Source: Spirochaetales bacterium (GTDB lineage Bacteria > Spirochaetota > GWE2-31-10). From it: a stretch of DNA of 54,891 nucleotides. The translations under genes and the position numbers were made by a program. The first letter of the stretch is position 1. The number at the start of each line of letters is the position of its first letter. Of this stretch, positions 1 through 37,876 are shown piece by piece. The stretch is from positions 1 to 54,891 of the forward strand of contig JBNMHA010000003.1 of NCBI GenBank assembly GCA_050872545.1, written 5' to 3'. Below the pieces are notes generated by a model that saw only the letters and a program-made list of their open reading frames with translations, had not been told where the DNA came from and made no database searches.

Positions 1-399
1 GCTGCCTTTTGTTGTTGTCCATTTGTGGCTTGAGTGCCCCTGCCCTTTTGTCTGCTTGTCCGCTGTTATGATTTCCATTTTTTTGCTGAAAGAATTTTCC
101 TGCGCGATTTTTCTTGCTTCTGTCATCGTGGATTCAGTTTCGGGAAAATGAAAGAAAAGCTCTTCTTCTGCACCGAATTCCCAAGGAAACAAACTGTCCT
201 TTAAGTCTTTTTCAAGAAAATATCCAGCACGCGTTGAAGAAATTCCGTAGCCAGAAAGCTGTAATGACTGAATTGCTTTCCAAACTGAAACTCTGGAAAT
301 ACCGGTGAGCTTTGCGACTTCTTCCCCGGAAACAGGGGCGTTTGCTTCTCGAAGAATTTTTAAGATTACATATTTTGTTGAAAGATTTTTGTTACCCAT
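1..399 (-). CDS. birA: BirA-family HTH repressor/biotin-protein ligase, 5' part (runs off window edge)
   Basis: Not in the ORF track. Manual translation from ATG 399: MGNKNLSTKYVILKILREANAPVSGEEVAKLTGISRVSVWKAIQSLQLSGYGI (BirA wHTH)...FHFPETESTMTEARK...IITADKQTKGQGHSSHKWTTTKGS (ligase STN- and QxxG-like motifs). Frame is open to base 1. Confidence 0.88.
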   Translation of the reverse strand, partial: MGNKNLSTKYVILKILREANAPVSGEEVAKLTGISRVSVWKAIQSLQLSGYGISSTRAGYFLEKDLKDSLFPWEFGAEEELFFHFPETESTMTEARKIAQENSFSKKMEIITADKQTKGQGHSSHKWTTTKGS

Positions 400-575
400 T
401 TATATTTATAGGTTAACAAAAAATTATTGCAACGGTCAAGAGATTTGCTACTGCGAATATTTTGCTTGAAACCTTAGTGAAAATAAAAATCCTTGTTATC
501 GGAATTAAAACTAAATCAGTAATTGTTTATATGTGGTATTATCATATACGTAAAATTTTTACTACGGATAAGATA

Positions 576-1658
576 ATGCATGAAATAAAAAAAAGAAATA
601 TGCTCCAATTAGCGGAATATCAAAAAGAACTTAGATTACATCCTCAGTTGACATATTTATTTTTTGAATTGACAGATTGTTGCAACCTTAATTGTTTACA
701 TTGTGGCAGTGGCTGTTCTGCAAAAAATAGGAAGTACCAAGATTTCAAGCTTATAAAAAAAACATTAGAAGAAGTTGCTTCAAAATATGACCCAACAAAA
801 ATTATGATATGCACATCTGGCGGAGAACCGCTTCTTTATCCGAAATTGTCGGAGGTAATATCTCTTGCTCATAGTTTGCATTTTAGAAATGGAATAACAT
901 CAAATGGGATTTTAATCACTGAACAAAAAGCGTATGAATTAATAAAAGCCGGATTGAATACAGCTGCAATTAGTATTGATGGCTTAATGGATAGTCATGA
1001 GCAGCTTCGTAATACAAAAGGGTGCTTTAATAAGGCATTAGAAGGTGTTTATAATTTAAGAAAATTTGGAATTGCACCTCAGGCAGTTTCGGTAATTCAT
1101 AAAAATAATATTCATGAACTTCAAGATATTTATAACTTTTTATCCAGTGAAAATTTTACTTCTTGGAGACTTGTTAATATAGAACCAATTGGTCGAACAA
1201 ATGAAAATAAACAATTATTGTTATCTGCAAATGAACTGAAAACGATGTTGCAGTTTATTCAAAAAAAGCGTTTTGATTCGAAAAATTCAATGGATGTTAC
1301 ATTTGGGTGTTCTCATTTTTTAACGTATGAATTTGAACATAATGTCAGAGACTTTTATTTTCAATGCGGAGCTGGAACAAAAGTTGCAAGCATTCTTGTA
1401 AACGGAGATATTGCAGCTTGCCTTGATATTGAACGTAGAGCCGAACTGATTCAAGGTAATGTAAGTAAAGACAGTTTTATTGATGTTTGGGAAAATAAGT
1501 TTGAGATATTTAGGAATGACAGGACAATAAACAGCAGAAACTGCGGTAATTGTGAATATAGAACTGTTTGTCAGGGTGATTCTATGCATACCTGGAATTT
1601 CGAAAATCAGGAACCTAATTATTGCTTTGTTAAATTAATGGAGGAAGAAAATTTATAA
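576..1658 (+). CDS. Radical SAM/SPASM-domain enzyme (putative peptide/protein maturase, splicease-like)
   Basis: CNLNCLHC (CxxxCxxC), SGGEPLL, ISIDG; SPASM cysteines CGAG...GDIAAC...CGNCEYRTVC...C. Start moved from TTG 462 to ATG 576; ATG 600 is also possible. Confidence 0.92.
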   Translation: MHEIKKRNMLQLAEYQKELRLHPQLTYLFFELTDCCNLNCLHCGSGCSAKNRKYQDFKLIKKTLEEVASKYDPTKIMICTSGGEPLLYPKLSEVISLAHSLHFRNGITSNGILITEQKAYELIKAGLNTAAISIDGLMDSHEQLRNTKGCFNKALEGVYNLRKFGIAPQAVSVIHKNNIHELQDIYNFLSSENFTSWRLVNIEPIGRTNENKQLLLSANELKTMLQFIQKKRFDSKNSMDVTFGCSHFLTYEFEHNVRDFYFQCGAGTKVASILVNGDIAACLDIERRAELIQGNVSKDSFIDVWENKFEIFRNDRTINSRNCGNCEYRTVCQGDSMHTWNFENQEPNYCFVKLMEEENL

Positions 1659-2386
1659 TGGATGCTAAGACTTTATTGGATATAATGAATGGTAAAACGG
1701 TTTATTCTACAGATTACAAAGGAAGATGTGGTAATTGTCATGAACTTTTGCGTGATGATGCAAAATATTGCCAATTTTGCGGAACTAAAAAGGGAGAAGG
1801 CGAATTTAAGCCATACGAAAATTCAATATATGTAGTTTATGGACCACCGATAAATGAAACTTATTTTTGCATTAAATGTAATAAAGCTTGGATTAATGAA
1901 TATGTGAATGCAAGCCCTGAATATTGTCCTTATTGCAGCTCAAAAGTTTCTTGTCTAGTAGGAAGACAAATTGGCGATTCACCCTGTTCAGATTTATATG
2001 ATCCTGATCTTTTGGAATCCATAAAACTCAACAATTGGAAACCGTTATTGTCAGAAGCAGAAATAAATAGAGTTCTTGGACTTCGCTACAATAAAGAAAT
2101 TGATCCACTCCGAGTTTCTGCAGCATATAATAAATGTAAACATTTTAGTAATGCAAGAAGCAGAGACAGAGCATACCTTAAACTTTTTATTTTCTTTGAT
2201 GTTAAAGGAAAAAATACTCTTGGATTAAATAGTAAATCATGTCCTATCTGCAAAAATAACATTTTAGCACGCGCTGTTAAAAGTAAAGAAGATGTGGTGA
2301 ATTGCCTTTATTATATTGATGATTACGAAATTGAATTTAAGTATAGATGTTTAGCATGTGGAGCCAAATTTAATGATGAAAGATAA
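1658..2386 (+). CDS. Cys-rich multi-zinc-ribbon protein with VYGPP motif
   Basis: Six CxxC motifs (CGNC, CQFC, CIKC, CPYC, CPIC, CLAC), about three Zn ribbons. TAATG stop/start overlap with the rSAM gene. Confidence 0.8.
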   Translation: MDAKTLLDIMNGKTVYSTDYKGRCGNCHELLRDDAKYCQFCGTKKGEGEFKPYENSIYVVYGPPINETYFCIKCNKAWINEYVNASPEYCPYCSSKVSCLVGRQIGDSPCSDLYDPDLLESIKLNNWKPLLSEAEINRVLGLRYNKEIDPLRVSAAYNKCKHFSNARSRDRAYLKLFIFFDVKGKNTLGLNSKSCPICKNNILARAVKSKEDVVNCLYYIDDYEIEFKYRCLACGAKFNDER

Positions 2387-2525
2387 ATTATTATTGAAAA
2401 AGAGGAACTACTTTATGGAAAGAAAATCACTGGTGTGAATTCACATGCGAACCGGTCATCTTTGTAAAATGAGTGGTAACTTGTATTCATAATTTTGCTT
2501 AAGAAAAATAAACACAAATTAACTT

Positions 2526-5500
2526 TCATTCCTCATATTTCTTGAAATTTTCTGCCTGATCAAAAACTTCCTTAAAGACTTCTTCGCGAGGAACCGGAGG
2601 ATAGCCGTTTTCATCAAGCAGAATCCGCAAATCTGCCTTCATTTCAGCCTTTACATCCAACCGCTGATTCCAGTCCGTATATTTTACATTTTGGGCGACA
2701 AGAATCTTAACTTTTTTGGCAAGCTCAATCATCTTCATTTTTGGATACTGGTCTTCAAAATTAAATCGTTTGGCGCAGCTTACAAGAATGTCATAAAACG
2801 CTTTTTCTTCAAAATCAATTCCCATAGCCTCAAAGGATTTTTTGTCTTCCATCATATCAGCAAAAAGCTGATTCAATTGTTCTGCAACATCATCAAGAAC
2901 CTTGCTTGCAAAATCTCCGTCATTGAAACGATTGTTGTAAGCGATAATCAAATTGTTCAAGCGTTCAGAAAATTCCGTCGCCTTTATTTTGTTCGTTTTC
3001 TTATATTCACCGATTGCCTGCCTTAAAAGCTGCTCAAGTATTTTGATTTTTGTATTTGGGAGCAGAAGCCTGTTAATTTTTTCAAGATATTCATAACTGA
3101 ATAAATCAAAGTTTACATTTCTTCCGACCTGAAAAAGTTCCTCCACACCGTCAGATTTTATCGCTTCCTGAATCAGTTTTGAAACGTGGCTATTCATCGT
3201 GGCAATATCAGGGGCATCGCCTTTTGTAAGTTTAAAAAGAATCGCACGGACTGCAATATAAAAATTAATCTGATTTTTTTCATCATCGGAAAATGATTCG
3301 CTTGTAGAGCAAAGGTCAAACGCCTTTTTCATTTTGCACGCGGCTTCCATAAAACGTTTTTCCAACTCTTCGTTAAACTGAACATACTCAACAGCCCTGT
3401 TCAAGGTTTCAAGCTGCTGAAACGGAGTTCCATTATAATACAACGACGCGTCAAACTTGTTGAACATTGCATTAACAACGCTCAATTGGTCTTTCACAAT
3501 TACAACAGCTTTTTCAGAATCTTCAAATTCTTCCTGTTCTCCGTCAGTATATTTTTTAAGAGCTTCATTCATTGCCTTTTTGATTCCGATGTAATCGACA
3601 ACGAGTCCTTTCTCTTTTCCTTTGTAAGTTCTGTTTACGCGGCTGATTGTCTGAATCAATGTATGTTTTTGAATCGGTTTAAAAATATAGATAGTATCAA
3701 GTGAAGGAACATCAAAACCTGTAAGCCACATATCGCAGACAATTGCAATCTTAAAATTAGATTTTTCATTTTTGAACTGGCGGTCAAGCTCTTTGCGGTA
3801 TTCGTGATTTCCAAGAAGCTCAAAAAGTCCTTTTGTGTCTTTCGCCTTGTTCTCGGTCATCACCATTTTGACTTTTTCAATTGGTTTTAGTTCCTTTTTT
3901 TCTTTTTCAGAAATGAGCACATCATCTGAGCAAAGTCTTTTTTCATTCCATCGCGGACGCAGGCGAATAATTTCTTTCCATAAATCAAAAACAACTTCGC
4001 GGGAAGAACAGACAAACATTGCCTTTCCAAGGACAGTGGCACCTTCACGAACGCGGGTTTCATAATGATTTATAAAATCCTCAGCAACGGCTTTTATAAC
4101 ATCAGGGTCGCGCAAAATCGCCTCAAGATTCGTAACAGCCTTTTTGCTCTGCTCAATCTGATTTTCATTTGCCCCGTCTTCTGCACACTGCGCATAATAA
4201 TTTTCAATTTCAAGAATTTTTTTATAATCAAGAAAAACTTTTGTTGCCCGTCCTTCATAAACAAGATTCGCAGTAATTCCATCGGCAACAGACTCTTTCA
4301 TTGTGTAAGTGTCTACAATTTCGCCAAAAACTTTTTCCATTTCATCAATCGGAGTTCCTGTAAAACCGACATAAGTTGCATTTGGAAAAGAATCATGCAG
4401 ATATTTTGCAAAACCGAATTTGTGCTCAACAATTCCCTTTTCATCATTCAGCACAAGTTTCTCATCAAGATTGTTTTGCGAACGGTGGGCTTCGTCGCTT
4501 ATGCAGATAATGTTTGAGCGGTCAGAAAGAAGTTTTATGTCCTCGCTGAATTTCTGAATTGTCGTAAGATAAACACCACCGCTCTGACGATCACGAAGTT
4601 TTTTGCCAAGTTCGGAACGGCTTTCTATTGTTTCAATATTCTGGTCGCCGATATAATTTTTTGATTTAAGAAAAAGACTTCCAAGCTGGTCATCCAAATC
4701 AGTTCTGTCGGTAATAACAATGATGGTCGGACTTTTGAGCGAAGTTGATTTCATCAATAGCCGGCACAAGAAAACCATGGTATAACTTTTGCCGCATCCT
4801 GTAGCACCAAAATAGATTCCGCCCTTGCCGCTGCCATTCGGTTTTATGGAAGATTTTATGCTTTCAAAAAGTTTTGTTGCCGCAAAAAACTGAGGATAAC
4901 GGCAGACGATTTTTGTTTCCTTGTCGCCTGAATCTGGAAAATACAAAAAATCTTTTATAACCGCAAGAAGCCGTTCCGGTCTGAAACATCCGTTAATCAT
5001 TGTGATTAAGGAACTTATTCCGTCAACTTCCTTGTCTGTGCTTTCAACTTTGCGCCAGGCATAAAAATATTCATAAGGCGAAAAAATCGAGCCCATCTTG
5101 GAATTTGCGCCGTCGGAAATCACTACAAAAGCGTTGTACTTAAAAAGTTCCGGAATATCGCGGCGGTAGCGCACGGCAAGCTGCTTGTATGCATCCTCAA
5201 TCGTAGTGTTTTCCCTGATTGCAGACTTGAACTCCAGGACAACAAGCGGAATTCCGTTCACGTAAACAATGCCGTCCGGAATACGAAGCTGTTCCCTGCC
5301 CTGTACTTCAAGCTGATTCACAATCTGAAAAATATTGTTTTCAGGATTTTCAAAATCAATCAGATTTATAAAAAGGTCTTTTTTAGCAGAATCATCGCGG
5401 CGGATTGTAAACCCATTGCAGATAAAATCAAGAATCCGCCTGTTTTCATCATAGAAATCCGAAGAGACATTTTTGATTTTATTCACAGCTGCTGAGATTT

Positions 5501-5675
5501 CGCTTTGAGTAATATTCTGGTCTGAATACCGAAACAAAAGAAAATTGCGAAGAACATCGGTCAAAAGAACTTCCGTTTTGTCGTGGTGAATCTCGCTGCC
5601 GGTAAGGTGCGCATATCCCGCATTTTCAAACAGCTCAATGATGGAAAGTTCCAATGCGTGCTCGTTGAATTGCAT
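2526..5675 (-). CDS. hsdR: Type I restriction enzyme R subunit
   Basis: PDGIVYVNGIPLVVLEFK nuclease motif, GATGCGKS Walker A, DEAHRSQ, GFTGTP, MWLTGFDVP, QTISRVNR; 1049 aa. Confidence 0.97.
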   Translation of the reverse strand: MQFNEHALELSIIELFENAGYAHLTGSEIHHDKTEVLLTDVLRNFLLFRYSDQNITQSEISAAVNKIKNVSSDFYDENRRILDFICNGFTIRRDDSAKKDLFINLIDFENPENNIFQIVNQLEVQGREQLRIPDGIVYVNGIPLVVLEFKSAIRENTTIEDAYKQLAVRYRRDIPELFKYNAFVVISDGANSKMGSIFSPYEYFYAWRKVESTDKEVDGISSLITMINGCFRPERLLAVIKDFLYFPDSGDKETKIVCRYPQFFAATKLFESIKSSIKPNGSGKGGIYFGATGCGKSYTMVFLCRLLMKSTSLKSPTIIVITDRTDLDDQLGSLFLKSKNYIGDQNIETIESRSELGKKLRDRQSGGVYLTTIQKFSEDIKLLSDRSNIICISDEAHRSQNNLDEKLVLNDEKGIVEHKFGFAKYLHDSFPNATYVGFTGTPIDEMEKVFGEIVDTYTMKESVADGITANLVYEGRATKVFLDYKKILEIENYYAQCAEDGANENQIEQSKKAVTNLEAILRDPDVIKAVAEDFINHYETRVREGATVLGKAMFVCSSREVVFDLWKEIIRLRPRWNEKRLCSDDVLISEKEKKELKPIEKVKMVMTENKAKDTKGLFELLGNHEYRKELDRQFKNEKSNFKIAIVCDMWLTGFDVPSLDTIYIFKPIQKHTLIQTISRVNRTYKGKEKGLVVDYIGIKKAMNEALKKYTDGEQEEFEDSEKAVVIVKDQLSVVNAMFNKFDASLYYNGTPFQQLETLNRAVEYVQFNEELEKRFMEAACKMKKAFDLCSTSESFSDDEKNQINFYIAVRAILFKLTKGDAPDIATMNSHVSKLIQEAIKSDGVEELFQVGRNVNFDLFSYEYLEKINRLLLPNTKIKILEQLLRQAIGEYKKTNKIKATEFSERLNNLIIAYNNRFNDGDFASKVLDDVAEQLNQLFADMMEDKKSFEAMGIDFEEKAFYDILVSCAKRFNFEDQYPKMKMIELAKKVKILVAQNVKYTDWNQRLDVKAEMKADLRILLDENGYPPVPREEVFKEVFDQAENFKKYEE

Positions 5676-5677
5676 AT

Positions 5678-6823
5678 TCAGACCTCCGAAATAAATTCAA
5701 GATAATTGTCTTTTGTAACTACAGAAAAAGGAATTTCAGGATAACTATTTGAGAATGTCAACGGACATTTTACATTTGCCTTTTTAGAATTGTACTTAAA
5801 CTCATAAGCAGAAAATTTTCCGTCAATTTCTTCTATGAAGTCAATTTCCTGTTTTTGTGTTGTACGCCAAAAATAGTATTTCGCTTTTCTATTATGGAAG
5901 GCATTATTTTTTACACGTTCACTTATCAAAAAATTTTCCCAAATCATGCCAATATCAGAACGCAAATCGCAGGGAGAAAAATTTGAGATAACAGCATTTC
6001 TAACACCGTTATCATAAAAATAAATCTTTATGCTTTTTTTTAGCTCATTTCGAACATTACGGCTGTATGAATGAAGATGAAAAACAACATAAGCCTTTTC
6101 AAGCAAATCCACATATTTTTGAACAGTAAGAGTATCAATTCCTAAAAGATTTCCAAGCTCATTGAATGAAACTTCACTTCCAACTTGCAAAGCAAGGGCT
6201 TGAACCAGTTTTTCAATTACAGCCGGCTTCCTAATATCTTGAAATTCAAAAACATCCTTATAAAGATAGCTTGAAACAATATTAGAAAGAATTTCTTTTT
6301 CTTCACCGGGATTATTTACAACATCAGGATAAAAACCATAGACGAGTCTATTTTCAAGCCGTTTCATTTCATCAAGCATATTTGAATTTGAAACAAGTTC
6401 ATTTGTCGAAAAAGGAAAAAGATTATATTCAAACTTTCGCCCGGTCAAAGGCTCATTTATGGTATTTGACAAATCAAGTGCAGAAGAGCCGGTTACAGCA
6501 ATCTGAACTTCCGGAAAGTTATCATGCAGGATTTTAAGCTTAAGCCCAATATTCTGAACACGCTGAGCTTCGTCAATAACAATAAATTTCGAATTTCCTA
6601 TAAGTAACTTGAACCTAGCGGAAGATTCTTCTGATAAGATTTTTCTAACTTCAACTTCGTCACAATTCCAATACTGAACAAAATTGTTTTCAAAATTTTC
6701 AGAAAGGATTTTTCTTAACAGAGTAGTTTTTCCTACCTGCCGTGGACCAATCAGAATTAAAACCTTGCCGCTCCCTATTTTTCCCTCAAGAATTTTCTGC
6801 AAATCACGCTTGATTTCTTTCAT
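5678..6823 (-). CDS. AAA_14/DUF4143 family ATP-binding protein
   Basis: GPRQVGKTT, IDEAQR, TGSS, LTGRK, wHTH-like middle region, C-terminal YFWRT..QEIDF..YEFK. Start set to ATG 6823. Confidence 0.92.
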   Translation of the reverse strand: MKEIKRDLQKILEGKIGSGKVLILIGPRQVGKTTLLRKILSENFENNFVQYWNCDEVEVRKILSEESSARFKLLIGNSKFIVIDEAQRVQNIGLKLKILHDNFPEVQIAVTGSSALDLSNTINEPLTGRKFEYNLFPFSTNELVSNSNMLDEMKRLENRLVYGFYPDVVNNPGEEKEILSNIVSSYLYKDVFEFQDIRKPAVIEKLVQALALQVGSEVSFNELGNLLGIDTLTVQKYVDLLEKAYVVFHLHSYSRNVRNELKKSIKIYFYDNGVRNAVISNFSPCDLRSDIGMIWENFLISERVKNNAFHNRKAKYYFWRTTQKQEIDFIEEIDGKFSAYEFKYNSKKANVKCPLTFSNSYPEIPFSVVTKDNYLEFISEV

Positions 6824-6830
6824 ATCAAAG

Positions 6831-6859
6831 ATTATACGACAAGCAATCAGCCTAATCAA
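6831..6859 (-). promoter_or_regulatory. Sigma70-like promoter for DUF4143 ATPase-hsdR, probably leaderless
   Basis: Minus strand TTGATT (6859-6854), 17-bp spacer, TATAAT (6836-6831), then 7 nt to ATG 6823 with no SD. Confidence 0.7.
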
Positions 6860-6915
6860 CAAAAATTATAATATTTATTGATTATAATCGAAAATTATTA
6901 TAATTTTTGTTGATT
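6854..6915. promoter_or_regulatory. 62-bp near-perfect palindrome with three ATTATAAT boxes (putative operator)
   Basis: Perfect 19-bp arms AATCAACAAAAATTATAAT / ATTATAATTTTTGTTGATT around central GATTATAATC; ATTATAAT at 6865, 6881, 6897. Confidence 0.65.
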
Positions 6916-7053: not shown

Positions 7054-9305
7054 TTACTGTTTCTGACGAACTTGAGACTTAACTTCAAGATTATTTGTTA
7101 CAAAACTTTTTTCTCTAAGTTCATTTACCATATCTGTATAGATATCTTTTCCTTTTGGATCTCTTATTGTTAACACTAATATAAACTCTTGTTCTGGCAA
7201 ACCCACATCATATCTTGTCAATCTACTAATCTCTAACTTCCAATAATTCCCTTCTTGAATCCCATGTTTCAAATTATGATAATAAGCTTTTATAGATGAC
7301 CATTTTGAACCATTTTTCACTCTTTCTTTTTCAAAAGCAAATTCATTTCCTTTTTCAAGTTCAACTTTTGAACTATATTTTTTACCAGAATAAACAGGTC
7401 CAAAACTTACATCCACATTTGACCTACAATAGCTAACTCCATAATTTTTATCAAGTAAAGGGGAATATACCAAAGTCATAAATATCTCACCATGATATTT
7501 TCCATCATAAATGAGTGATTTTGGGAAAGGAAAATCTAACATTTCCAACATTTTGCCTTGCTTTATTCCCTGTTTAAAAACAATTGTGATTTCATCTGAA
7601 CTTGTTCGTAATATATCCTGCGGATCATCAGGTGCCATTCCATATCCAGTATATAATCTTTGTTTTTTTTCAATTAAAGACTTTGAATTAATTCTGGCTG
7701 AATGAATAAGCAATGCTTTTGCCAATAATAAATCTTTTTCAACCAGTTCATCATAAACACATGAATATTTATATAATGCCCTTGGAGTTGCAAAACTTGT
7801 TCCAATATTTTCGACTATTTTATTATCTGGTGTCATACCAAATATACCTAGATTTCTTGATTTTTTAAATTCATTATAATTTCCACCATAATCAACAAGT
7901 TCTGGTTTAATCATATAACCAACACCAGGTCCTCGGCGTGAAAAAGGAGATGGTTCATTCTTTTTTGAATAAGAGTCATCCGAATCTTTTAACGCAAGAG
8001 AACCAACTGTGATAGCCCGAACAGAATCTGCTGGTGAAATAATCCTATCAGAATCATCATCTTTATATGCAAAAGGCCAGTTTTCATTTCTAATTACATT
8101 TCCTGCCGATACAAAAAATTGAACATTATACTTATCTTGCATAATATCTAGAAATTCACCAAAATCAGAAATCTCTCCATTACATATACAATCTGGTAAG
8201 CCTACAGAAAGATTCCAAATCTTAACAACTCCACTATACTGTTTCATGCATTCTTCAATTATATCCATCAAATCATCTTCTGAAATTGAATCTGTATACC
8301 CCACGGCAGGTTCATTGTTAGACAATGCTTCTATATCTAATAATTTAAATCTTTTTGGCTTTGTTTCTGATATATTATTCAAATAATTCCCATATAATAT
8401 TGTCGATGCGATAAATGCACCATGTTGATGATTTTGATAATCAACACCAACATAACTTTTTCTTTCAACAACATATTGATTCAGTGCAGAATTTTTATCT
8501 CCAATTCCACCATCAATAATTCCAATTATTGTATCAGATTCTGTATATGAAATATTATTTAATTTTCCATATCTACTATATCTAATGAAAATGATGGTAA
8601 AACATAAGTATGGAATATATCTATCGATTGAACTCCAACTATATTTGAAATTTTTTCAAGGTCCACCTTTGAATTTAGCTCAAGTTTATATAGTTTCGAT
8701 TTTTCATGTATTACTGGTTGTAATTTACCCAGCAAGTCAAGTTCTCGTAACTTTTGAAAAAAATAACGTTTCGTTTTTTCATTTATTTCATCATCACCAT
8801 AATCAAAAAGCCTTACTTTTATTGATTTTTTTAATTTCTCAAAATCATTATCATTAACACTTCTTAAAATAACAGATAATTTATCTTCTGACAAAATAGG
8901 AATAATACTATCTATTGCTGTTATATTAGCCTTTACTCCATCTTTATCAGACTTTTGAGCTATTTCTACACTTTCTTTTAATGAAGACTCTGTTACTTGA
9001 ATATAAAATTGATTAATATCTTTAGAACCAAAAATATGGTTATTTTTAAGTAACAAATCTGGAGTGTGGGATTTTGCACAAGCTTCATCTTTCATGATTA
9101 ACATGGCAACAGCAGGTATCAAGTTTTTTGTTTCTTCAAAAAAAGAAGCATAGTAATCGATAACACCTTTAAAACAATTAATAATATTATTCTGAACATT
9201 TACATTATAATCTCCAAAGAATTTCTTTGGACCACCACCAGTATGAATGGGCTTCACATCATCTTTTCTAGGTAATACAATTTTAATTGGTAAATTCTTA
9301 TTCAT
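7054..9305 (-). pseudogene. ietS: S8 subtilase, IetS-like, frameshifted near 8563-8566
   Basis: ORFs 8559..9305 and 7054..8382 are joined by a -1 frame change. The gap encodes IIGIIDGG (Asp) and HGAFIAS (His) in frame with GTSFATP (Ser). One extra A in ATGGAAAATT restores a ~750-aa protein. Start overlaps the ATPase stop. Confidence 0.85.
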
Positions 9306-10440
9306 TTTCTTCTCCTTCACTATTATCTAATAATGGTTTTATTTGCGATTTAGAAATATGCAATATTTCAGATATCAAGTCATATGAAAATGGCTTTCCA
9401 ATTTCATTATATAAATACGAACATACTTGTTTCTGATAATTTTTTTTATCTTCATCTGGATTAGAAAAATTCTTATATAAAAAGAATTCTCTATATATTT
9501 TTTGTACTGAATACTGTTGATTATGTACTATAGCGTTTCTTATAGATTTTTTTATTATTTCTTCAATATTTGATCCACTTAGATTCTTAAAAGCATAAGA
9601 TAAATAATCCTTATCCTTATCTGAAATATTCAATGAATTATTTATAAATAAATCCAGCATACTTCTAATTGTCTTTTGGTCTGGCAAGGATACTTCCAAT
9701 TTATAATCAAATCTTCTCCATACTGCAGAATCTAACAACTGTGCATGATTAGTTGCAGCTATCAGAAGACTATCCTTACTCATAGTATCTATATTTTGTA
9801 ACAAGCTGTTTACAACTCTTTTTAATTCTCCAAGTTCATTATTATCATCACGAGCTTTTGCAAGAGCATCAAACTCATCCAGAAATAAAACACATGGAAT
9901 CCTCTGGGCATATTCAAACAATGTACGAATATTTTTTGCAGTTGTACCAAGATATGATGAAATCATACTGTCCAAACGAGCGGTTATTAGCGGTAAATTC
10001 AGTTCTTTGGCAATCCATTTTGCACATTCTGTTTTTCCGCAACCAGGTGGACCATATAACAATAAAGTATTTGAAACGCCAACTCCAAGCTGATTTAATT
10101 TATCAGCATTTTTATAATTTAAAATAAATGATTTTAAATTGCTCGTATTATTATCAGAAAGAATTACATTTGCTGCGTTATCTTTAGGAGAAATATAATC
10201 AGCCAAAGAAATTCTAGATTCATTATCAACAGGAATATTCCCTATAAACGAATCCAAACTATTTGGCTTTAACTCTTTCATCTCTTCATTTTTTAAAAGC
10301 TTAGAAAATTTTGAAGCGGCTCTTTCTTCTCCGTCAACGATAAGTTTATCTATTAACATTTTGGTATAATTTTTAACCTTTAACAAATCACCTTTAAGAG
10401 AACCTTCTACTATTTTTCCTATTTCAATTGAATAATTCAT
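9298..10440 (-). CDS. ietA: AAA+ ATPase, IetA-like partner of S8 protease
   Basis: GPPGCGKT, FLDEFD, ELGELKRVVNSLLQ, AATNH, AVWRRFD; C-terminal HTH-like FSYDLISEILHISKSQI. Start set to ATG 10440 (SD AAAGGT). Confidence 0.9.
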   Translation of the reverse strand: MNYSIEIGKIVEGSLKGDLLKVKNYTKMLIDKLIVDGEERAASKFSKLLKNEEMKELKPNSLDSFIGNIPVDNESRISLADYISPKDNAANVILSDNNTSNLKSFILNYKNADKLNQLGVGVSNTLLLYGPPGCGKTECAKWIAKELNLPLITARLDSMISSYLGTTAKNIRTLFEYAQRIPCVLFLDEFDALAKARDDNNELGELKRVVNSLLQNIDTMSKDSLLIAATNHAQLLDSAVWRRFDYKLEVSLPDQKTIRSMLDLFINNSLNISDKDKDYLSYAFKNLSGSNIEEIIKKSIRNAIVHNQQYSVQKIYREFFLYKNFSNPDEDKKNYQKQVCSYLYNEIGKPFSYDLISEILHISKSQIKPLLDNSEGEENE

Positions 10441-10538
10441 TTTCGTACCTTTACAAGCAATATAAACGAACAAATCGTTTTTGTAAAGAACAAAATATGT
10501 ATCTTCACGAACAATTCTAATATTTTTAAGAACTCTCA

Positions 10539-11669
10539 CTACTTCCTTGCAATCTGCGAAACGAGAAGTTGTTTTAGTTGTTCAAGTTTTTCAAGTTCTT
10601 TTTCGTTTAATAAAATCTGTGCAAATAATGGCGAAACTTTTTCATCAAAACTCCGCATATCTTTTTCACTTGGAATTTTCAATTTTATAGAAGCAAAAAG
10701 TGATTTGCTAACATTCAAAGTTGTACTTCCGCCAGCTCCAAGTCTTTTTAATTCTTCTGTCATGTTTTTTAGCGTTAAAAAAACATAGTAAAAAGAAACA
10801 TCAGATTTGCAAATAATAGAATTAATCTGCTGATTTGTCTGACTTTCTTTTGTTGTTAATGAAACAAGCCCCACTGTTGCAATACAACTAACGCAAATTG
10901 AATTTGCTGGTAAAGTTTGTTTTGCTTGAGATTTTTTTCCATAGTCGGACAAATATCTTTCTGTTGTATGTATAAAATTATTTCCATGCATATCTGGAAT
11001 TGTAATAAATGGGATTTCTTTTCCCCAATATTCTTTTACTGATGTTGATGGAGTTTTGCCGCAAATTACATTTTCAGATATTTCTTCTATCGTTTTTACT
11101 TCAAACAAATCTTTATCTTTCGTCATTTCCTCAAACAGACATTGCGCTGTCTCTTCCAGCTTATCATTTATCTTCTGTTTAATCTTGATGCGGTTTTCTA
11201 TTGCGTTGTAGGCATCTACGATTTTTTGTTGTTCTTCAAGTGAAGGAACTGGGAGTTTCATGTCGCAAAAATCTTCCCACGGCATACTTCCGCGCACCCC
11301 ACCAACAGCAATATAAGAAGCTTCGCGGTCAAACTCGGAACGCATAAACCACATTGATAAATAATCCGGAAGAATTTCCTCAGTATTTTTGATTCTGAAA
11401 ATATAATAAGCAGGAGACATAATTGCTTCATCGTAATCTTTAAGGCAAGCAATGGGAATTTTTCCATCACGGCTAACCTGCATAAGAGAACAAGCAAAAT
11501 CGAACTTTCTGATTACTTGATATTTTGACAAGTCTGTTCCTATTGTATTTGCAACAGATTTTATGAAACATTTATCAATACTAACGCCTATAAGAGTTTT
11601 TATTTTTCCATCTTTATTTCGCTCATCGATTAAATCAATCAATTCCCCAAGCTTTTTCAATTCACTCAT
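10539..11669 (-). CDS. hsdS: Type I R-M specificity subunit
   Basis: Two TRDs with conserved helices VPSLEEQQKIV...INDKLEETAQ and IPSE...LEQLKQLL; lies between hsdM and hsdR. Confidence 0.95.
   Translation of the reverse strand: MSELKKLGELIDLIDERNKDGKIKTLIGVSIDKCFIKSVANTIGTDLSKYQVIRKFDFACSLMQVSRDGKIPIACLKDYDEAIMSPAYYIFRIKNTEEILPDYLSMWFMRSEFDREASYIAVGGVRGSMPWEDFCDMKLPVPSLEEQQKIVDAYNAIENRIKIKQKINDKLEETAQCLFEEMTKDKDLFEVKTIEEISENVICGKTPSTSVKEYWGKEIPFITIPDMHGNNFIHTTERYLSDYGKKSQAKQTLPANSICVSCIATVGLVSLTTKESQTNQQINSIICKSDVSFYYVFLTLKNMTEELKRLGAGGSTTLNVSKSLFASIKLKIPSEKDMRSFDEKVSPLFAQILLNEKELEKLEQLKQLLVSQIARK
10551..10590 (-). repeat. Direct repeat copy 2 (inside hsdS 3' end)
   Basis: AATCTGCGAAACGAGAAGTTGTTTTAGTTGTTCAAGTTTT; matches 6948-6987 at 39/40. 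Confidence 0.93.
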
Positions 11670-11756: not shown

Positions 11757-13322
11757 CTACAACTTAATCTCATAGCCCAAATTCTTGAACACATTGAGCA
11801 AGGCAACTTTGCTTTCTTCTTCCTGCTTGAGCAAGTCTGCAAGTTCTGTCTGTAAACTTTTCATTGTTGTGTCAAAATCTAGAGTTTCATCTCGGTTTAC
11901 AAATTCAATGTAGCGGCTTGGAACAAGGTTGTAGCCTTTTTCTGCGATTTCTTTTTTTGTTGCGCTGTAGCAGAATTCCGGAACATTTTTATAAGTTTTG
12001 TCTTTGCCTAACTGCTGCCAAGCATGAAAAGCTGAGGTTACTTTGTCGCGGTCATTTTGAGTAAGCTCGATGTATTTTTTTTCAAATGGGGAGCCCATCT
12101 GTCGCAAGTCCATAAAAAGAACTTCATCCTCACGGTTTCTGTAGCTCTTGATTTTTCCGTTCTGTTGAACCGTACGTGCTTTTTTATTTTTATTCAAAAT
12201 CCACAGCGTTACGGAAATATCTGTTGTATAGAAAAGATTTCTCGGAAGAATCACGATTGCCTCTACAAGATTGTTTTCTACAAGCCGCTTTCTGATTTCC
12301 AGCTCCTGCCCTTCGCCGCTTAACGCACCGTTGGCAAGCAAAAATCCTGCGACACCGTTCTGGCTCAATTTGCTTACCATGTGCAGAATCCAGCCGTAGT
12401 TTGCGTTGCTTGTTGGCGGAACAACATAACCGTTCCAGCGGGAATCGTCGGTAAGTTCATTTTCCGCACGCCAGTCTTTTTGATTGAACGGAGGATTTGC
12501 CATAATGTAGTCGGCGCGCAAATCTTTGTGCAAATCGTTTGTAAAAGTGTTGGCTGCCTTTTCGCCCAAATCACACGGAATTCCACGTATTGCAAGATTC
12601 ATCTTTGCCATTTTATATGTCGTTCCAGTTCCTTCCTGACCGTAAACAGAAATATCCTTTGCATTTCCGGCATGATTTTCCACAAATTTAAGCGACTGCA
12701 CAAACATTCCGCCCGAACCGCAGCAAGGGTCGTAGATTTTTCCTTTATACGGCTCAATCATTTCAGCAATCAGATTTACAACTGATTTTGGCGTATAGAA
12801 TTCGCCTTTTCCCTTTCCTTCCTGAAGCGCGAATTTTGTAAGAAAATATTCGTAGACGCGTCCCATGATGTCGTTTTCTTTGTCGGCGGTTGTCTGAATA
12901 TTGTTGATTTCGTCCAAAAGCGCCGCAAGTTTTGAAACATCAATTCCAAGGCGTGAATAATAGTTGTCCGGAAGTGCGCCTTTTAGCGAGGGATTCTGTT
13001 TTTCAATTGTGTTAAGCGCTGTGTCGATTTTTAACGCAATGTCCGGCTGCTTTGCATTTTCCATTATGAACGGCCAGCGGGATTCCTGCGGAACAAAAAA
13101 GACATTTTTCATGTCATAGAATTCCTGCAAGTCCAAATATTTTTCTTTGCCTTCCGCAATAAGTTCATTACGTCGGTCGCTGAATTTATCGTTTACGAAT
13201 TTCAGAAAAATTAGGCTAAGGACAACATGCTTATATTCTGCAGGCTCAACTGTTCCGCGCAATTTATCACAGGCACTCCAAAGCGCATCTTCAAAACTTA
13301 CAACTTTCTTTGCTTTTGCCAT
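11757..13322 (-). CDS. hsdM: Type I R-M N6-adenine methyltransferase M subunit
   Basis: LWSACDKLRG, GEFYTP, YDPCCGSGGMF, ANPPFN. Confidence 0.97.
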   Translation of the reverse strand: MAKAKKVVSFEDALWSACDKLRGTVEPAEYKHVVLSLIFLKFVNDKFSDRRNELIAEGKEKYLDLQEFYDMKNVFFVPQESRWPFIMENAKQPDIALKIDTALNTIEKQNPSLKGALPDNYYSRLGIDVSKLAALLDEINNIQTTADKENDIMGRVYEYFLTKFALQEGKGKGEFYTPKSVVNLIAEMIEPYKGKIYDPCCGSGGMFVQSLKFVENHAGNAKDISVYGQEGTGTTYKMAKMNLAIRGIPCDLGEKAANTFTNDLHKDLRADYIMANPPFNQKDWRAENELTDDSRWNGYVVPPTSNANYGWILHMVSKLSQNGVAGFLLANGALSGEGQELEIRKRLVENNLVEAIVILPRNLFYTTDISVTLWILNKNKKARTVQQNGKIKSYRNREDEVLFMDLRQMGSPFEKKYIELTQNDRDKVTSAFHAWQQLGKDKTYKNVPEFCYSATKKEIAEKGYNLVPSRYIEFVNRDETLDFDTTMKSLQTELADLLKQEEESKVALLNVFKNLGYEIKL

Positions 13323-20994: not shown

Positions 20995-21072
20995 ATCCTC
21001 ATGTTTTTTTAATGTTTCCATAACAAAGAAAATGCATTATGCTATTCATTGCTTAAATCAAAGGAGAATTAT

Positions 21073-22284
21073 ATGTTCAAGAAAATTGTTTTATTCATAT
21101 TTTCTGTTTTGTTAATGGCTTCATGCGGCGGAATCGAACTGGAAGAACGCACAGGAAGCGGTTCGGAACTTAAAATCAAACCTGTCGTAACAACAGAAGA
21201 TTCCAACTTTCCGGGAAAAAGCAACAGTGCAAAGGTCGAAATGATATGCATTGATTTCCCGGAAGTCATTTACGATTCTATTGTACTGGGGGAAGATGTT
21301 GAAGACATAACCGTTGAAAAGAAAGTTTTCCCATACAAACTTGCAAAATATGAATTAAGCTACAATGTTTGGCGCATTGTTTATAAATGGGCAACGTCGG
21401 AAGAACGTGGCAGTAGAATTTACACATTTGAAAATGCCGGTGCGGAAGGTGCATACGGAGCTTATATCCTTTTCAATGAAGGCGGCGCCCCACAATCTGT
21501 CGGAATGCCGGTAACGGGAATAAGCTGGCGAGACGCTGTTGTCTGGTGTAACGCTTTCAGCGAAATGTGCGAACTAGAGCCTGTTTATTATATAGATCCC
21601 GGCTTTTCTTCACCTATCAGAAATGCTGTACATACAGACGGTGCAGATATTAAAAATTGTCCTCTGCCGTATTCCAGTCTGGCAAAAGAAGTCGATATGA
21701 ATTCATTGACAAAAGGGAAAATAGACAATCCTTATGTAAACAAACTTTCCAATGGCTGGAGACTTCCTTACGATTATGAATGGGAATATGCAGCACGAAA
21801 ATGCAAAGACGGCTCGTTCCTTTCCGGCAGAAATGTTCCGGGCGATCCGAATGGTCCGGCTTACGGTTCTGCCGCACCATCATTATTAGACCAGATTAAA
21901 GGAATTACGGAAGCAATTCCGTCATCAAAAAAATCTGGTGATTATGCTTGGAACAAAAATAATTCAGCCGGTAACGGAACAAATTCAACGGCTGCAGGTT
22001 GGGATGACAGTACACCTATCTGCGGCATGTCCGGTATCAGAATGCACAAACAAGGCGACAAGCTTCCTACAGAATTAGGCTTTTACGATATGGGCGGAAA
22101 TGCTTACGAATGGCAATTTGATTACGGAGCCGCTTACAATTGGAAATATGAACTGTATCCGTCAAGAGCATTGCGCGGTTATACATATCAATGGCCTATA
22201 ACCGATAACTTTGCAGCCGCAGCAAGATACATCTGCCCGCCTTACGTAAAAATGGGCGGAATCCGCTTAGCCAGAAATTTTTAG
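21073..22284 (+). CDS. FGE-sulfatase (SUMF1/CLec-fold) domain lipoprotein
   Basis: SD AAGGAG; lipobox LMAS-C; PVTGISWRDAVVWCN, GWRLP..EWEYAAR, LGFYDMGGNAYEW, C-terminal GIRLAR. Confidence 0.9.
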   Translation: MFKKIVLFIFSVLLMASCGGIELEERTGSGSELKIKPVVTTEDSNFPGKSNSAKVEMICIDFPEVIYDSIVLGEDVEDITVEKKVFPYKLAKYELSYNVWRIVYKWATSEERGSRIYTFENAGAEGAYGAYILFNEGGAPQSVGMPVTGISWRDAVVWCNAFSEMCELEPVYYIDPGFSSPIRNAVHTDGADIKNCPLPYSSLAKEVDMNSLTKGKIDNPYVNKLSNGWRLPYDYEWEYAARKCKDGSFLSGRNVPGDPNGPAYGSAAPSLLDQIKGITEAIPSSKKSGDYAWNKNNSAGNGTNSTAAGWDDSTPICGMSGIRMHKQGDKLPTELGFYDMGGNAYEWQFDYGAAYNWKYELYPSRALRGYTYQWPITDNFAAAARYICPPYVKMGGIRLARNF

Positions 22285-36136: not shown

Positions 36137-37876
36137 ATGATAAGCGAAGAGTTTATAAATCAAGTAAAAGAAAAAATCCTTTGTGCAATCAGTGAACTTT
36201 CCGGAAAAGAAACAGCTAATTTACCGGAACTGGTTACTGAAATTCCGCCGCAGCAAGAACTTGGAGATTTGGCATTTCCGATGTTTAAATATGCAAAAGA
36301 ACTTCATCTGGCACCGCCTAAAATTGCGGCAGAAGTACAAAATAAATTAACAAACTGTGAACTTATCGCCAAAAGTGAAATAAAAGGTCCGTATTTAAAC
36401 ATTTTTCTGAATCGCGGAATTTTGTCGCAAACCGCATTAAGCAGAATTTTAGAACAAAAGGAAAATGTAGGAACGCTGCCTGCAAAAAACGAAAAAGTTC
36501 TGATAGAATTTTCATGTCCGAATACAAATAAGCCGCTTCATTTAGGACACTGCCGCAATAATGTATTAGGCGACAGCATTGCCCGTATATACAAAAAAGC
36601 AGGGTTTGACGTAGCAACAGTGAATTTAATCAACGACCGTGGCGTTCATATCTGCAAATCAATGCTTGCATATCAGAAATTCGGCAACGGTTGTACGCCG
36701 GAAAGCACAAATAAAAAAAGCGACCATTTAGTCGGAGATTTCTACGTTCGTTTTGCAAAGGAAGCCGAATCTGACAGTCACTTAAATGACGAAGCTCAAG
36801 AAATGCTTGTAAAATGGGAAGCAAAAGACCCTGAAGTAAGAACTCTGTGGGAAAAAATGAACAATTGGGCAATAAACGGAATCCAAGAAACTTACGATAA
36901 AATGGGAATTCATTTTGATTACGTACAGCGTGAAAGTAAAACTTATATTTTAGGCAAAGACATTGTGCAGGAAGGTTTGGAAAAAGGCGTATTTTATAAG
37001 GAAAAAGACAACAGCATTTGGGTAAATAATGAAGATGTCGGTCTCGATAAAAAAATCGTACTGCGTTCCGACGGAACAAGTATTTACATTACTCAAGATA
37101 TGGGAACTTTGGTAATGCGCCAGAAATCGTTCGGTTTCGACAAAATGATTTACGTTGTAGGTTCAGAACAAATTTACCACTTTCAAACATTGTTCACCAT
37201 TATGAAAAAACTCGGCTATAAATGGGCTGACAATTGTTACCATTTAAGCTACGGAATGGTAAATCTTCCCGACGGAAAAATGAAAAGCCGAGAGGGAAAA
37301 GTCGTTGACGCAGATAATTTAATGGAAGAACTTCAGCTAATGTCTTACGATGTTGTTTGTGAAAAACATCCCGACTGGACTGACGAAGAAAAGCAGGATA
37401 CCGCAAGAAAAATAAGTTTAGGCGCAATGAAATATTACTTATTGAACTTTAACACAGGCAAAGACGTAATGTTCGACCCAAAGAAATCAATAAGTTTTGA
37501 TGGAAATACAGGTCCGTATCTGCAATACACAACTGCCCGAATCAATTCACTACTGAAAAAAGCCGGAAATGTAAACTTCAATTTTGAATCATTGAAAAAT
37601 TATTCTTTCCGTGATGAAGAATGGCAGGTTATATCTATGTTAATGCAGTTTGAACACGCAGTAGCGCAAGCCGCCGCAGAATATTCTCCACTGGAAATAT
37701 GCAGTTATCTGTATGACCTTGTGCGTTTGTACAGCAAAATGTATCACGAACTGCCTATTGTTACCGCAGAAAAGCAGGATGAAAAAGAAGTGCGCCTGAT
37801 GATTACCAAAGCAGTACAGTATGTTCTGACTGCCGGACTTGAAATGCTTGGAATCGATGCATTAGAAAAAATGTAG
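36137..37876 (+). CDS. argS: Arginine--tRNA ligase
   Basis: PNTNKPLHLGH, KMKSREG, GPYLQY, C-terminal EKM. Confidence 0.98.
   Translation: MISEEFINQVKEKILCAISELSGKETANLPELVTEIPPQQELGDLAFPMFKYAKELHLAPPKIAAEVQNKLTNCELIAKSEIKGPYLNIFLNRGILSQTALSRILEQKENVGTLPAKNEKVLIEFSCPNTNKPLHLGHCRNNVLGDSIARIYKKAGFDVATVNLINDRGVHICKSMLAYQKFGNGCTPESTNKKSDHLVGDFYVRFAKEAESDSHLNDEAQEMLVKWEAKDPEVRTLWEKMNNWAINGIQETYDKMGIHFDYVQRESKTYILGKDIVQEGLEKGVFYKEKDNSIWVNNEDVGLDKKIVLRSDGTSIYITQDMGTLVMRQKSFGFDKMIYVVGSEQIYHFQTLFTIMKKLGYKWADNCYHLSYGMVNLPDGKMKSREGKVVDADNLMEELQLMSYDVVCEKHPDWTDEEKQDTARKISLGAMKYYLLNFNTGKDVMFDPKKSISFDGNTGPYLQYTTARINSLLKKAGNVNFNFESLKNYSFRDEEWQVISMLMQFEHAVAQAAAEYSPLEICSYLYDLVRLYSKMYHELPIVTAEKQDEKEVRLMITKAVQYVLTAGLEMLGIDALEKM

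Follow-up and report, generated by a model that had tools for sequence, protein, structure and literature searches.

A radical SAM/SPASM enzyme and a zinc-ribbon protein with a conserved YGxP site form a predicted maturase-substrate pair in a Spirochaetales bacterium

Locus and gene layout

A 54,891-nucleotide stretch of DNA from Spirochaetales bacterium (GTDB lineage Bacteria; Spirochaetota; GWE2-31-10; GenBank assembly GCA_050872545.1, contig JBNMHA010000003.1, positions 1 to 54,891, forward strand), hereafter called the window, was analysed for a two-gene cassette near its left end. The cassette encodes a radical S-adenosylmethionine (SAM) enzyme with a SPASM domain and, directly downstream, a zinc-ribbon protein, hereafter the partner (Table 1). 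It most likely represents a radical SAM/SPASM maturase-substrate pair in which the predicted substrate belongs to a new family of folded zinc-ribbon proteins, and the pairing recurs in metagenomes.

For the enzyme gene, further in-frame starts are present upstream at 531 and 462, and homologue alignments begin at the 576 start. The enzyme stop codon and the partner start codon are joined in a TAATG overlap, which is consistent with translational coupling of the two genes. GC content is 0.31-0.33 across the pair; the birA end has 0.355 and hsdR 0.35-0.42, so that the AT-richness is genuine yet modest. A previous reading made from the letters alone (the sequence-only reading) had described the overlap, the AT-richness, three CxxC-type zinc ribbons in the 242-residue partner and a VYG triplet between its ribbons 1 and 2, and had seen no short precursor peptide. 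These points were reproduced throughout: the overlap was found again, the triplet (V60-Y61-G62) falls on exactly the same bases, all three sets of zinc ligands were located, and YG occurs in none of the small intergenic open reading frames (ORFs) of at least 20 residues (305-469, 2358-2438, 2413-2529). A promoter and terminator scan yielded nothing exceeding shuffled sequences.

The radical SAM/SPASM enzyme and its family

The enzyme was matched by the Pfam models Radical_SAM (PF04055, 76.9 bits, cut-off 29.5) and SPASM (PF13186, 34.9 bits, cut-off 21.5), both above their gathering scores. Judged by these two domains together with its CX3CX2C and GGE motifs, it is a radical SAM/SPASM enzyme, the class that the sequence-only reading had given it. 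Residue C47, shortly after the radical SAM motif, is likewise invariant in the homologue alignment. The SPASM elements C264...G277-x4-C282, C323-x2-C326-x5-C332 and C350 are present, with C245 upstream. At the place of the fourth Cys of CX2CX5CX3C, the window enzyme has S336 (1581-1583) and TIGR04133 members have Gly; the Cys is missing from the whole lineage, TIGR04133 included, which leaves seven auxiliary Cys for two presumed clusters.

TIGR04133 was the top NCBIfam match (260.5 bits, cut-off 425), more than 100 bits over the next model, and was followed by NirJ2 (145.8 bits), AhbD (132.8 bits) and MftC (TIGR03962; 98.6 bits, cut-off 265). TIGR03913 (GDL motif peptide-associated maturase) ranked 13th with 92.1 bits, under its cut-off of 591.75. 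Kinship to the TIGR04133/TIGR03913 group had been proposed from sequence alone; TIGR04133 does stand as the nearest curated family, whereas membership holds for neither. No specific affinity to TIGR04103 (Nif11-class maturase 3) was seen, its match reaching 87.6 bits with a cut-off of 725. TIGR04103 is presumably the family of PlpX itself (InterPro IPR026482).

Close relatives of the enzyme scored 258-273 bits against TIGR04133 (P0007 258.5, P0013 269.2). True members of that family, found in the order to which the host belongs and in a Bacteroidales metagenome-assembled genome (MAG), reached 547 (L009), 502 (L005) and 455 bits (L002); the window enzyme is 36-39% identical to them. In a maximum-likelihood tree of 26 rows, the true TIGR04133 enzymes formed one clade (support 100/99). 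The window enzyme fell outside this clade and grouped with P0007 (100/99) among enzymes that adjoin zinc-ribbon partners. Because of its sub-cut-off score and its position outside the clade, the enzyme is assigned to a sister subfamily of TIGR04133 and not to the family itself.

A word-based search returned 1200 enzyme homologues, the best 120 at 49-68% identity apart from one 99% copy among them, and Butyrivibrio was the sole organism name among those listed. A PDB sequence search gave distant radical SAM enzymes only (BlsE, SkfB, SuiB-like, PqqE, BtrN), and a single-enzyme search of genome contigs gave one distant locus (L002).

The partner protein and its module family

The partner contains three Cys4 sets (Table 1), and V60-Y61-G62-P63-P64 is located between ribbons 1 and 2. 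Zinc-ribbon matches in Pfam were all below threshold. A word-based search found three relatives only, and their alignment exposed a strongly conserved double zinc-ribbon module. Neither Pfam nor NCBIfam has a model for this module. When 1.84 billion representatives were searched with a profile of the partner, 451 matched at E<=1e-3; the stricter limits of 1e-10 and 1e-30 left 291 and 53, and a look-up of the clusters of 10 family members returned 'hypothetical protein' names only. On these profile matches, the partner founds an unnamed, new domain family of 451 cluster representatives.

Conservation was determined in 159 module copies from 151 proteins, namely P0002, P0004 and 148 of the 150 best matches; P0003 was excluded from the alignment as 99% identical to the window protein. 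The module consensus reads DY..RCGNCH...(D/K)KYC.YCGTKRGEG.F.PY.N....[VLI]YGPP...Y.C..CG..W......YCP.CG. Zinc ligands are kept in 154-159 of the 159 copies. Tyr is kept in 152 and Gly in 149, so that the YG is nearly invariant, a point that the sequence-only reading had proposed to check for its YG(PP) motif. The two Pro after YG are kept in 122 and 137 copies, V/L/I precedes Tyr in 136, and position +2 after Tyr is P, S, A or C. A single YG in 242 residues is no more than chance; what lies above chance is the family conservation and the gene linkage.

Architectures vary within the family: 44 proteins have a Toprim-like N-terminal domain before the module, 28 consist of the module alone, 26 resemble the window protein in having the C-terminal domain after it, 24 have both additions and a few have tandem modules. 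About half of the family carries an N-terminal alpha/beta domain of about 110 residues, which was examined in a model of P0160 (residues 1-120). Its best structural matches were primase Toprim domains (2au3_A, Z 9.2, root-mean-square deviation 2.9, 109 aligned; 5guj_A, Z 8.7; Twinkle, Z 8.3), with receiver domains next at Z 6-7, only moderately over the stated background of the tool. P0242, a metagenomic protein of 668 residues, combines a Ser/Thr kinase domain at residues 51-310 (Pkinase, 111.8 bits) with the YG module in one fusion and has a second site, PCVYGSPE, close to the C-terminus.

The AlphaFold model of the partner was confident (predicted local distance difference test (pLDDT) 86.6, predicted template modelling score (pTM) 0.77). 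Foldseek against the PDB gave no match at E<=1e-3 and a wide VIA search a best Z of 3.7, so that no fold is assigned, which implies neither a novel fold nor the absence of a known one. ESM Atlas gave no usable match.

Linkage of enzyme and partner genes

Scanning metagenomes with the alignment of the module gave 25 loci. In 17 of them a radical SAM homologue (37-59% identity) directly adjoins the module gene on the same strand. The single module locus found on a viral contig also has an adjoining radical SAM gene, giving 18/26 loci in all, and the co-occurrence of partner and enzyme lineage, which the sequence-only reading had proposed to examine, recurs elsewhere. Gene order is not fixed, with the radical SAM gene first in 13 linked loci and the partner gene first in five. 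Five of the unlinked loci end at contig edges. The other neighbours differ from locus to locus (transposase, WYL regulator, HNH nuclease, HipA, SRP54-type GTPase), and the conserved unit is the enzyme-partner pair alone.

The YGxP motif in partners of related enzymes

At all eight TIGR04133-type loci examined (8/8), the gene directly upstream of the enzyme encodes a lipoprotein with (E/M)YG-x-P or CYGP no more than about 15 residues after the lipobox cysteine, in agreement with the sequence-only reading that TIGR04133 partners bear YGxP motifs. Three of three such lipoproteins tested matched TIGR04134 (46.7-84.2 bits), and TIGR04134 matches occurred only beside true TIGR04133 members. An additional TIGR04133-type enzyme with a YG lipoprotein was found on a viral contig (L050); the enzyme-alignment scan of viral contigs had returned 43 loci, nearly all with distant radical SAM enzymes (<=33% identity), and L050 was the only relevant one of the three examined (L050-L052).

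A third type of partner was found at locus L004 (583-1483, plus strand), where four tandem small lipoprotein ORFs (60-88 residues) lie upstream of a radical SAM gene whose product is 43% identical to the window enzyme. Three of these lipoproteins contain VYYGP, AVYGPGP and CIYGPP, and the first is without YG; none matched an NCBIfam model. The L004 enzyme is sister to a zinc-ribbon-paired enzyme (support 96/90) within the zinc-ribbon types. A similar ATPase to that encoded downstream of the cassette in the window (PDC-S01, Table 1) is encoded just downstream of the L004 radical SAM gene.

TIGR04133 enzymes and the window enzyme thus share the radical SAM motif, GGE, the seven auxiliary Cys, the missing fourth Cys of CX2CX5CX3C and an adjacent YGxP partner. 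They differ in that the window partner is an apparently cytoplasmic double zinc ribbon, with no TIGR04134 match and no lipobox, in that the window enzyme stands outside the TIGR04133 clade, and in a CLDIERR motif containing D284, which is specific to the zinc-ribbon and small-lipoprotein clades. The motif tracks the enzyme lineage. Three unrelated partner families have only Y-G-x-P in common, as would be expected for the target site of the enzyme.

Model of the enzyme-partner complex

The enzyme was modelled together with residues 12-102 of the partner, which span the module, and SAM and three clusters were included as riding ligands. The interface score ipSAE was 0.75 (runs 0.75, 0.65, 0.81) versus 0.02 for the best of three controls. 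The runs share at least 79% of contacts, and partner pLDDT was at least 64. The modelled interface is the conserved loop, in which G62/P63 are placed against enzyme residues 29, 79-82 (beside GGE), 106-108 and 129-131. G62 contacts enzyme residues 29, 79, 106, 108 and 131 and has the most low-error active-site contacts of any residue. Y61 is placed against D284. Partner residues F50, P52 and N55, which belong to a loop and not to a helix, are placed against the N-terminal helix (residues 4-15) and residues 260-263 of the enzyme. The model supports binding of the partner by the enzyme with YG in the predicted active site.

Comparison with known systems

MftC is likewise a radical SAM/SPASM enzyme and is among the better non-self matches of the window enzyme in the hidden Markov model (HMM) searches. 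It acts at a Val-Tyr pair; its substrate MftA ends in Val-Tyr, so that the site is C-terminal, and the RiPP recognition element (RRE; RiPP, ribosomally synthesised and post-translationally modified peptide) protein MftB is needed. The window score lies under the MftC cut-off, and the window site is internal and followed by G-x-P.

Spliceases (PlpX/PlpY, PcpX, RhaX, RcsX/RasX) belong to the radical SAM/SPASM enzymes and have X-Y-G as their site of action, X being hydrophobic (M, L) (PMC11414181; PMC9811515; PMC11626197). Binary X/A splicease systems without a Y protein exist (PMC11414181), and structure models of splicease systems likewise put XYG in the active site (PMC11414181; PMC10533398; PMC11626197; PMC9811515). 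YG-rich neighbours were the criterion that yielded 27 confirmed splicease-substrate pairs (PMC10849128), and 27 characterised and 939 predicted systems are given for Scott et al. 2022 (Chem) (PMC10533398). The same arrangement, a radical SAM/SPASM enzyme beside a predicted substrate with conserved X-Y-G, is present in the window. In addition, the validated PlpA splice tag ...RP-L-Y-G-L-P-I (PMC10533398) resembles the [VLI]-Y-G-[PSA]-P-[IVM] of the module. The cassette differs from spliceases in having no Nif11/NHLP-type leader, Y protein, protease or exporter and no specific TIGR04103 affinity, and in that its predicted site is no part of a core peptide but belongs to a loop in a folded zinc protein. 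In splicease systems, the X enzyme is bound by an activating helix that comes from a Y protein or the substrate leader; the cassette has no further small gene, and the partner residues modelled at the N-terminal helix of the enzyme belong to a loop.

A methanogen SPASM radical SAM enzyme installs thioether cross-links in proteins (PMC13692751) and is a precedent for a radical SAM/SPASM maturase acting on a protein and not on a short peptide. It differs in its Cys thioether chemistry and its lineage; as to the residue before YG, Cys is not conserved in the module family (C in 71/159 copies; V in the window). A literature search limited to one paper collection found no study of the present pairing, none naming TIGR04133 and none tying spliceases to lipoproteins, although the survey of Scott et al. 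2022 may include the lineage. For the YG motif in combination with radical SAM and SPASM, only a general review surfaced.

Proposed mechanism and alternatives

Radical SAM enzyme and zinc-ribbon partner are probably an enzyme-substrate pair, because the genes are coupled and linked, the motif is conserved and tracks the enzyme lineage, and the complex was modelled with the site in place. The enzyme would bind its co-translated partner at the loop that joins zinc ribbons 1 and 2, and a 5'-deoxyadenosyl radical would modify the nearly invariant [V/L/I]-Y-G-x-P site (V60-Y61-G62-P63-P64). By splicease-type excision, a tyramine equivalent would be removed from Y61. The predicted product is an alpha-keto-beta-amino (ketoamide) residue derived from V60 within a folded cytoplasmic zinc-ribbon protein. 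In this complete form, in which both modification and excision are predictions from the analysis and tyramine excision is the leading chemistry, the scheme is offered tentatively and at slightly less than an even chance.

Several findings weigh against it. The site evidence (conservation, linkage, model) does not discriminate between radical chemistries. The TIGR04103 score lies under those of NirJ2, AhbD and MftC and indicates no specific affinity to that family, and in NCBIfam release 20 both TIGR04133 and TIGR04134 are 'hypoth_equivalog' entries to which no function is given. No leader, RRE/Y protein, protease or exporter was found beside the pair, unlike in classical RiPP clusters. The conservation figures describe the family core, as the 151 proteins are the top matches of a profile that already contained the motif. 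Conservation of Y and G is not above that of the zinc ligands and other loop residues, and a structural role is possible. Five module copies have YA, one WG and one HG, and two degenerate extra copies are without the site. Three module loci with at least 1 kb on either side (L023, L025, L030) have no adjoining radical SAM gene. The calibration of the complex score, in which the mark was attained by 58/80 solved complexes and 2/110 mismatched pairs, is approximate, since own alignments and riding ligands differ from its set-up.

With the same pair and site, a different radical chemistry is somewhat unlikely but deserves serious attention. Under it the enzyme may cross-link the Tyr through a C-C or C-O bond (as in a three-residue cyclophane from Y61 to Cbeta of residue 63), couple Val to Tyr in the manner of MftC, epimerise a residue or form a Gly62-centred radical. 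The binding and site evidence is neutral between these reactions and splicing. The MftC model scored 156.4 bits for the L004 relative, as its third-best match, in addition to the score of the window enzyme; all residues found at position +2 after Tyr bear Cbeta-H; G62 is foremost in low-error active-site contacts in the model; and YA variants occur, whereas the splicease papers give the target solely as XYG. Among the radical SAM/SPASM peptide chemistries found or known to us, however, splicing alone is defined by an X-Y-G site. No cyclophane motif in which these positions are Pro or Gly is known to us, and to our knowledge glycyl-radical activases are without SPASM domains. The hydrophobic-YGxPI pattern moreover matches that of a validated splice tag (PMC10533398).

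That the partner is not the substrate but an accessory protein, scaffold or regulator, with the true substrate a small molecule (such as a tetrapyrrole-like cofactor) or a protein encoded elsewhere, is unlikely. The tetrapyrrole enzymes NirJ2 and AhbD do follow directly after TIGR04133 in the enzyme's matches, the three module genes without adjoining radical SAM gene would fit, and the Toprim-like domain in about half of the family hints at a nucleic-acid-related role of its own. Yet it is the most conserved loop of the partner, and not a surface patch, that was modelled within the barrel against GGE; cofactor-pathway genes were not found beside the pair; and the unrelated lipoprotein and zinc-ribbon partners have only YGxP in common, as for a substrate site. 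A chance neighbourhood of two genes without functional relation, with the YG as nothing but a structural turn between ribbons, is very improbable and already disfavoured. Zinc-ribbon proteins are common and frequently uncharacterised, and Y and G are conserved about like many other module residues, but adjacency in both gene orders amid otherwise unrelated surroundings, the stop/start overlap and the complex score against its controls speak for the enzyme-substrate pair.

Genomic context, origin and possible defence role

Of 20 genomes of the host order, the window's own was the sole one in which the partner module was found; among 401 genomes sampled from the phylum, it was seen there and in one 30-bit partial match. 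In four genomes of the same genus (72-97% complete), the enzyme was not found at E<=1e-20. Because of this restricted distribution in the host lineage and the Butyrivibrio sequences as closest named enzyme relatives, the cassette is regarded as horizontally acquired and foreign to the spirochaete host. ArgS (36137-37876, plus strand) has its nearest named relatives in Spirochaetes/Spirochaetota MAGs (57-64% identity), which marks the host as a spirochaete of an uncultured lineage. DNA of the cassette region was found in metagenomes, including wastewater metagenomes with partial shares. No match to the partner was obtained by tblastn in 50,697 phage or 72,556 plasmid records.

Table 1. Positions of the cassette, its sequence features and the adjacent defence genes in the window
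Feature	Position	Strand	Remarks
Radical SAM/SPASM enzyme gene	576-1658	+	360 residues from ATG at 576; Radical_SAM and SPASM
Radical SAM [4Fe-4S] motif C36-x3-C40-x2-C43	681-704	+	invariant in 65 aligned homologues
G82-G83-E84, GGE SAM-binding motif	819-827	+	invariant in the alignment
SPASM region	1308-1625	+	seven invariant Cys: C245, C264, C282, C323, C326, C332, C350
TAATG stop/start overlap	1656-1660	+	TAA 1656-1658 and ATG 1658-1660 have one base in common
Partner gene, predicted substrate	1658-2386	+	242 residues, three zinc ribbons
Double zinc-ribbon module, residues 19-96	1712-1945	+	unit common to the whole family
Zinc ribbon 1 (C24, C27, C38, C41)	1727-1780	+	Cys columns kept in 157-159 of 159 copies
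Inter-ribbon loop G42-P64 (GTKKGEGEFKPYENSIYVVYGPP)	1781-1849	+	predicted recognition and modification loop
V60-Y61-G62, candidate modification (splice) site	1835-1843	+	conservation; modelled active-site placement
Zinc ribbon 2 (C71, C74, C90, C93)	1868-1936	+	
C-terminal helical domain and zinc ribbon 3 (C204, C207, C231, C234)	1955-2383	+	in about 1/3 of the family
hsdR	2526-5675	-	type I restriction-modification
PDC-S01 ATPase (AAA_14/DUF4143)	5678-6862	-	PADLOC candidate PDC-S01, 535 bits; between hsdR and IetS
IetS, two ORFs	7054-8382 (profile 310-748 of 749), 8559-9320 (profile 3-232)	-	S8 protease
IetA	9298-10539	-	464.8 bits
hsdS	10539-11669	-	type I restriction-modification
hsdM	11757-13322	-	type I restriction-modification

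The cassette is located at the edge of a variable defence region. The type I restriction-modification genes hsdR, hsdS and hsdM are split apart by insertions of IetAS and PDC-S01. The two IetS ORFs are 176 bases apart, which points to a frameshift, to disruption of the gene or to a naturally split one. Within positions 1-6900, only the PDC-S01 gene has DNA matches (74-75%) in genomes of the same genus. Farther downstream, a lipoprotein-like ORF (21049-22284, plus strand) contains an FGE-sulfatase (formylglycine-generating enzyme-like) domain (63.2 bits). In PADLOC-DB 2.0, the partner had no match and the enzyme only generic radical SAM similarity to pVip models (71.6 bits, residues 30-227).

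The sequence-only reading had taken the proximity of restriction-modification genes and an S8 protease as a hint at a role in defence or conflict. This suggestion is weakened. The protease is IetS of IetAS within the restriction-modification operon, so that its proximity needs no functional link to the cassette, and it was rejected as the cassette's target; the neighbours of the pair also vary elsewhere. A defence role, argued from guilt by association, is rather doubtful. More improbable still is a cassette that acts as a genetically encoded covalent inhibitor. In that case a splicease-made alpha-ketoamide warhead, with Val/Leu/Ile as P1, Gly as P1' and Pro as P2', would sit in a rigid loop fixed by the two zinc ribbons of a cytoplasmic protein and would trap an intracellular serine or cysteine protease such as a phage maturation protease. 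The cassette would then be a new type of module for defence or conflict, able to pass from phylum to phylum and to lodge in defence islands.

Implications

Most of what is known of radical SAM/SPASM maturases concerns short peptides that are exported. The predicted substrate of the present enzyme is instead a folded protein that binds metal and is apparently cytoplasmic, and the cassette is without leader, protease and exporter. Since one enzyme lineage is combined with three unrelated predicted substrate families (zinc-ribbon modules, small lipoproteins and TIGR04134), YGxP provides a clean handle for finding the reaction, and the reaction would tell what TIGR04133/TIGR04134, long listed as a hypothetical pair, do. 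If tyramine splicing is true, it would constitute natural backbone beta-amino/ketoamide chemistry in proteins, and protein engineering would gain a compact enzyme-tag pair that needs no leader. Whatever the chemistry, the partner proteins represent a new domain family.

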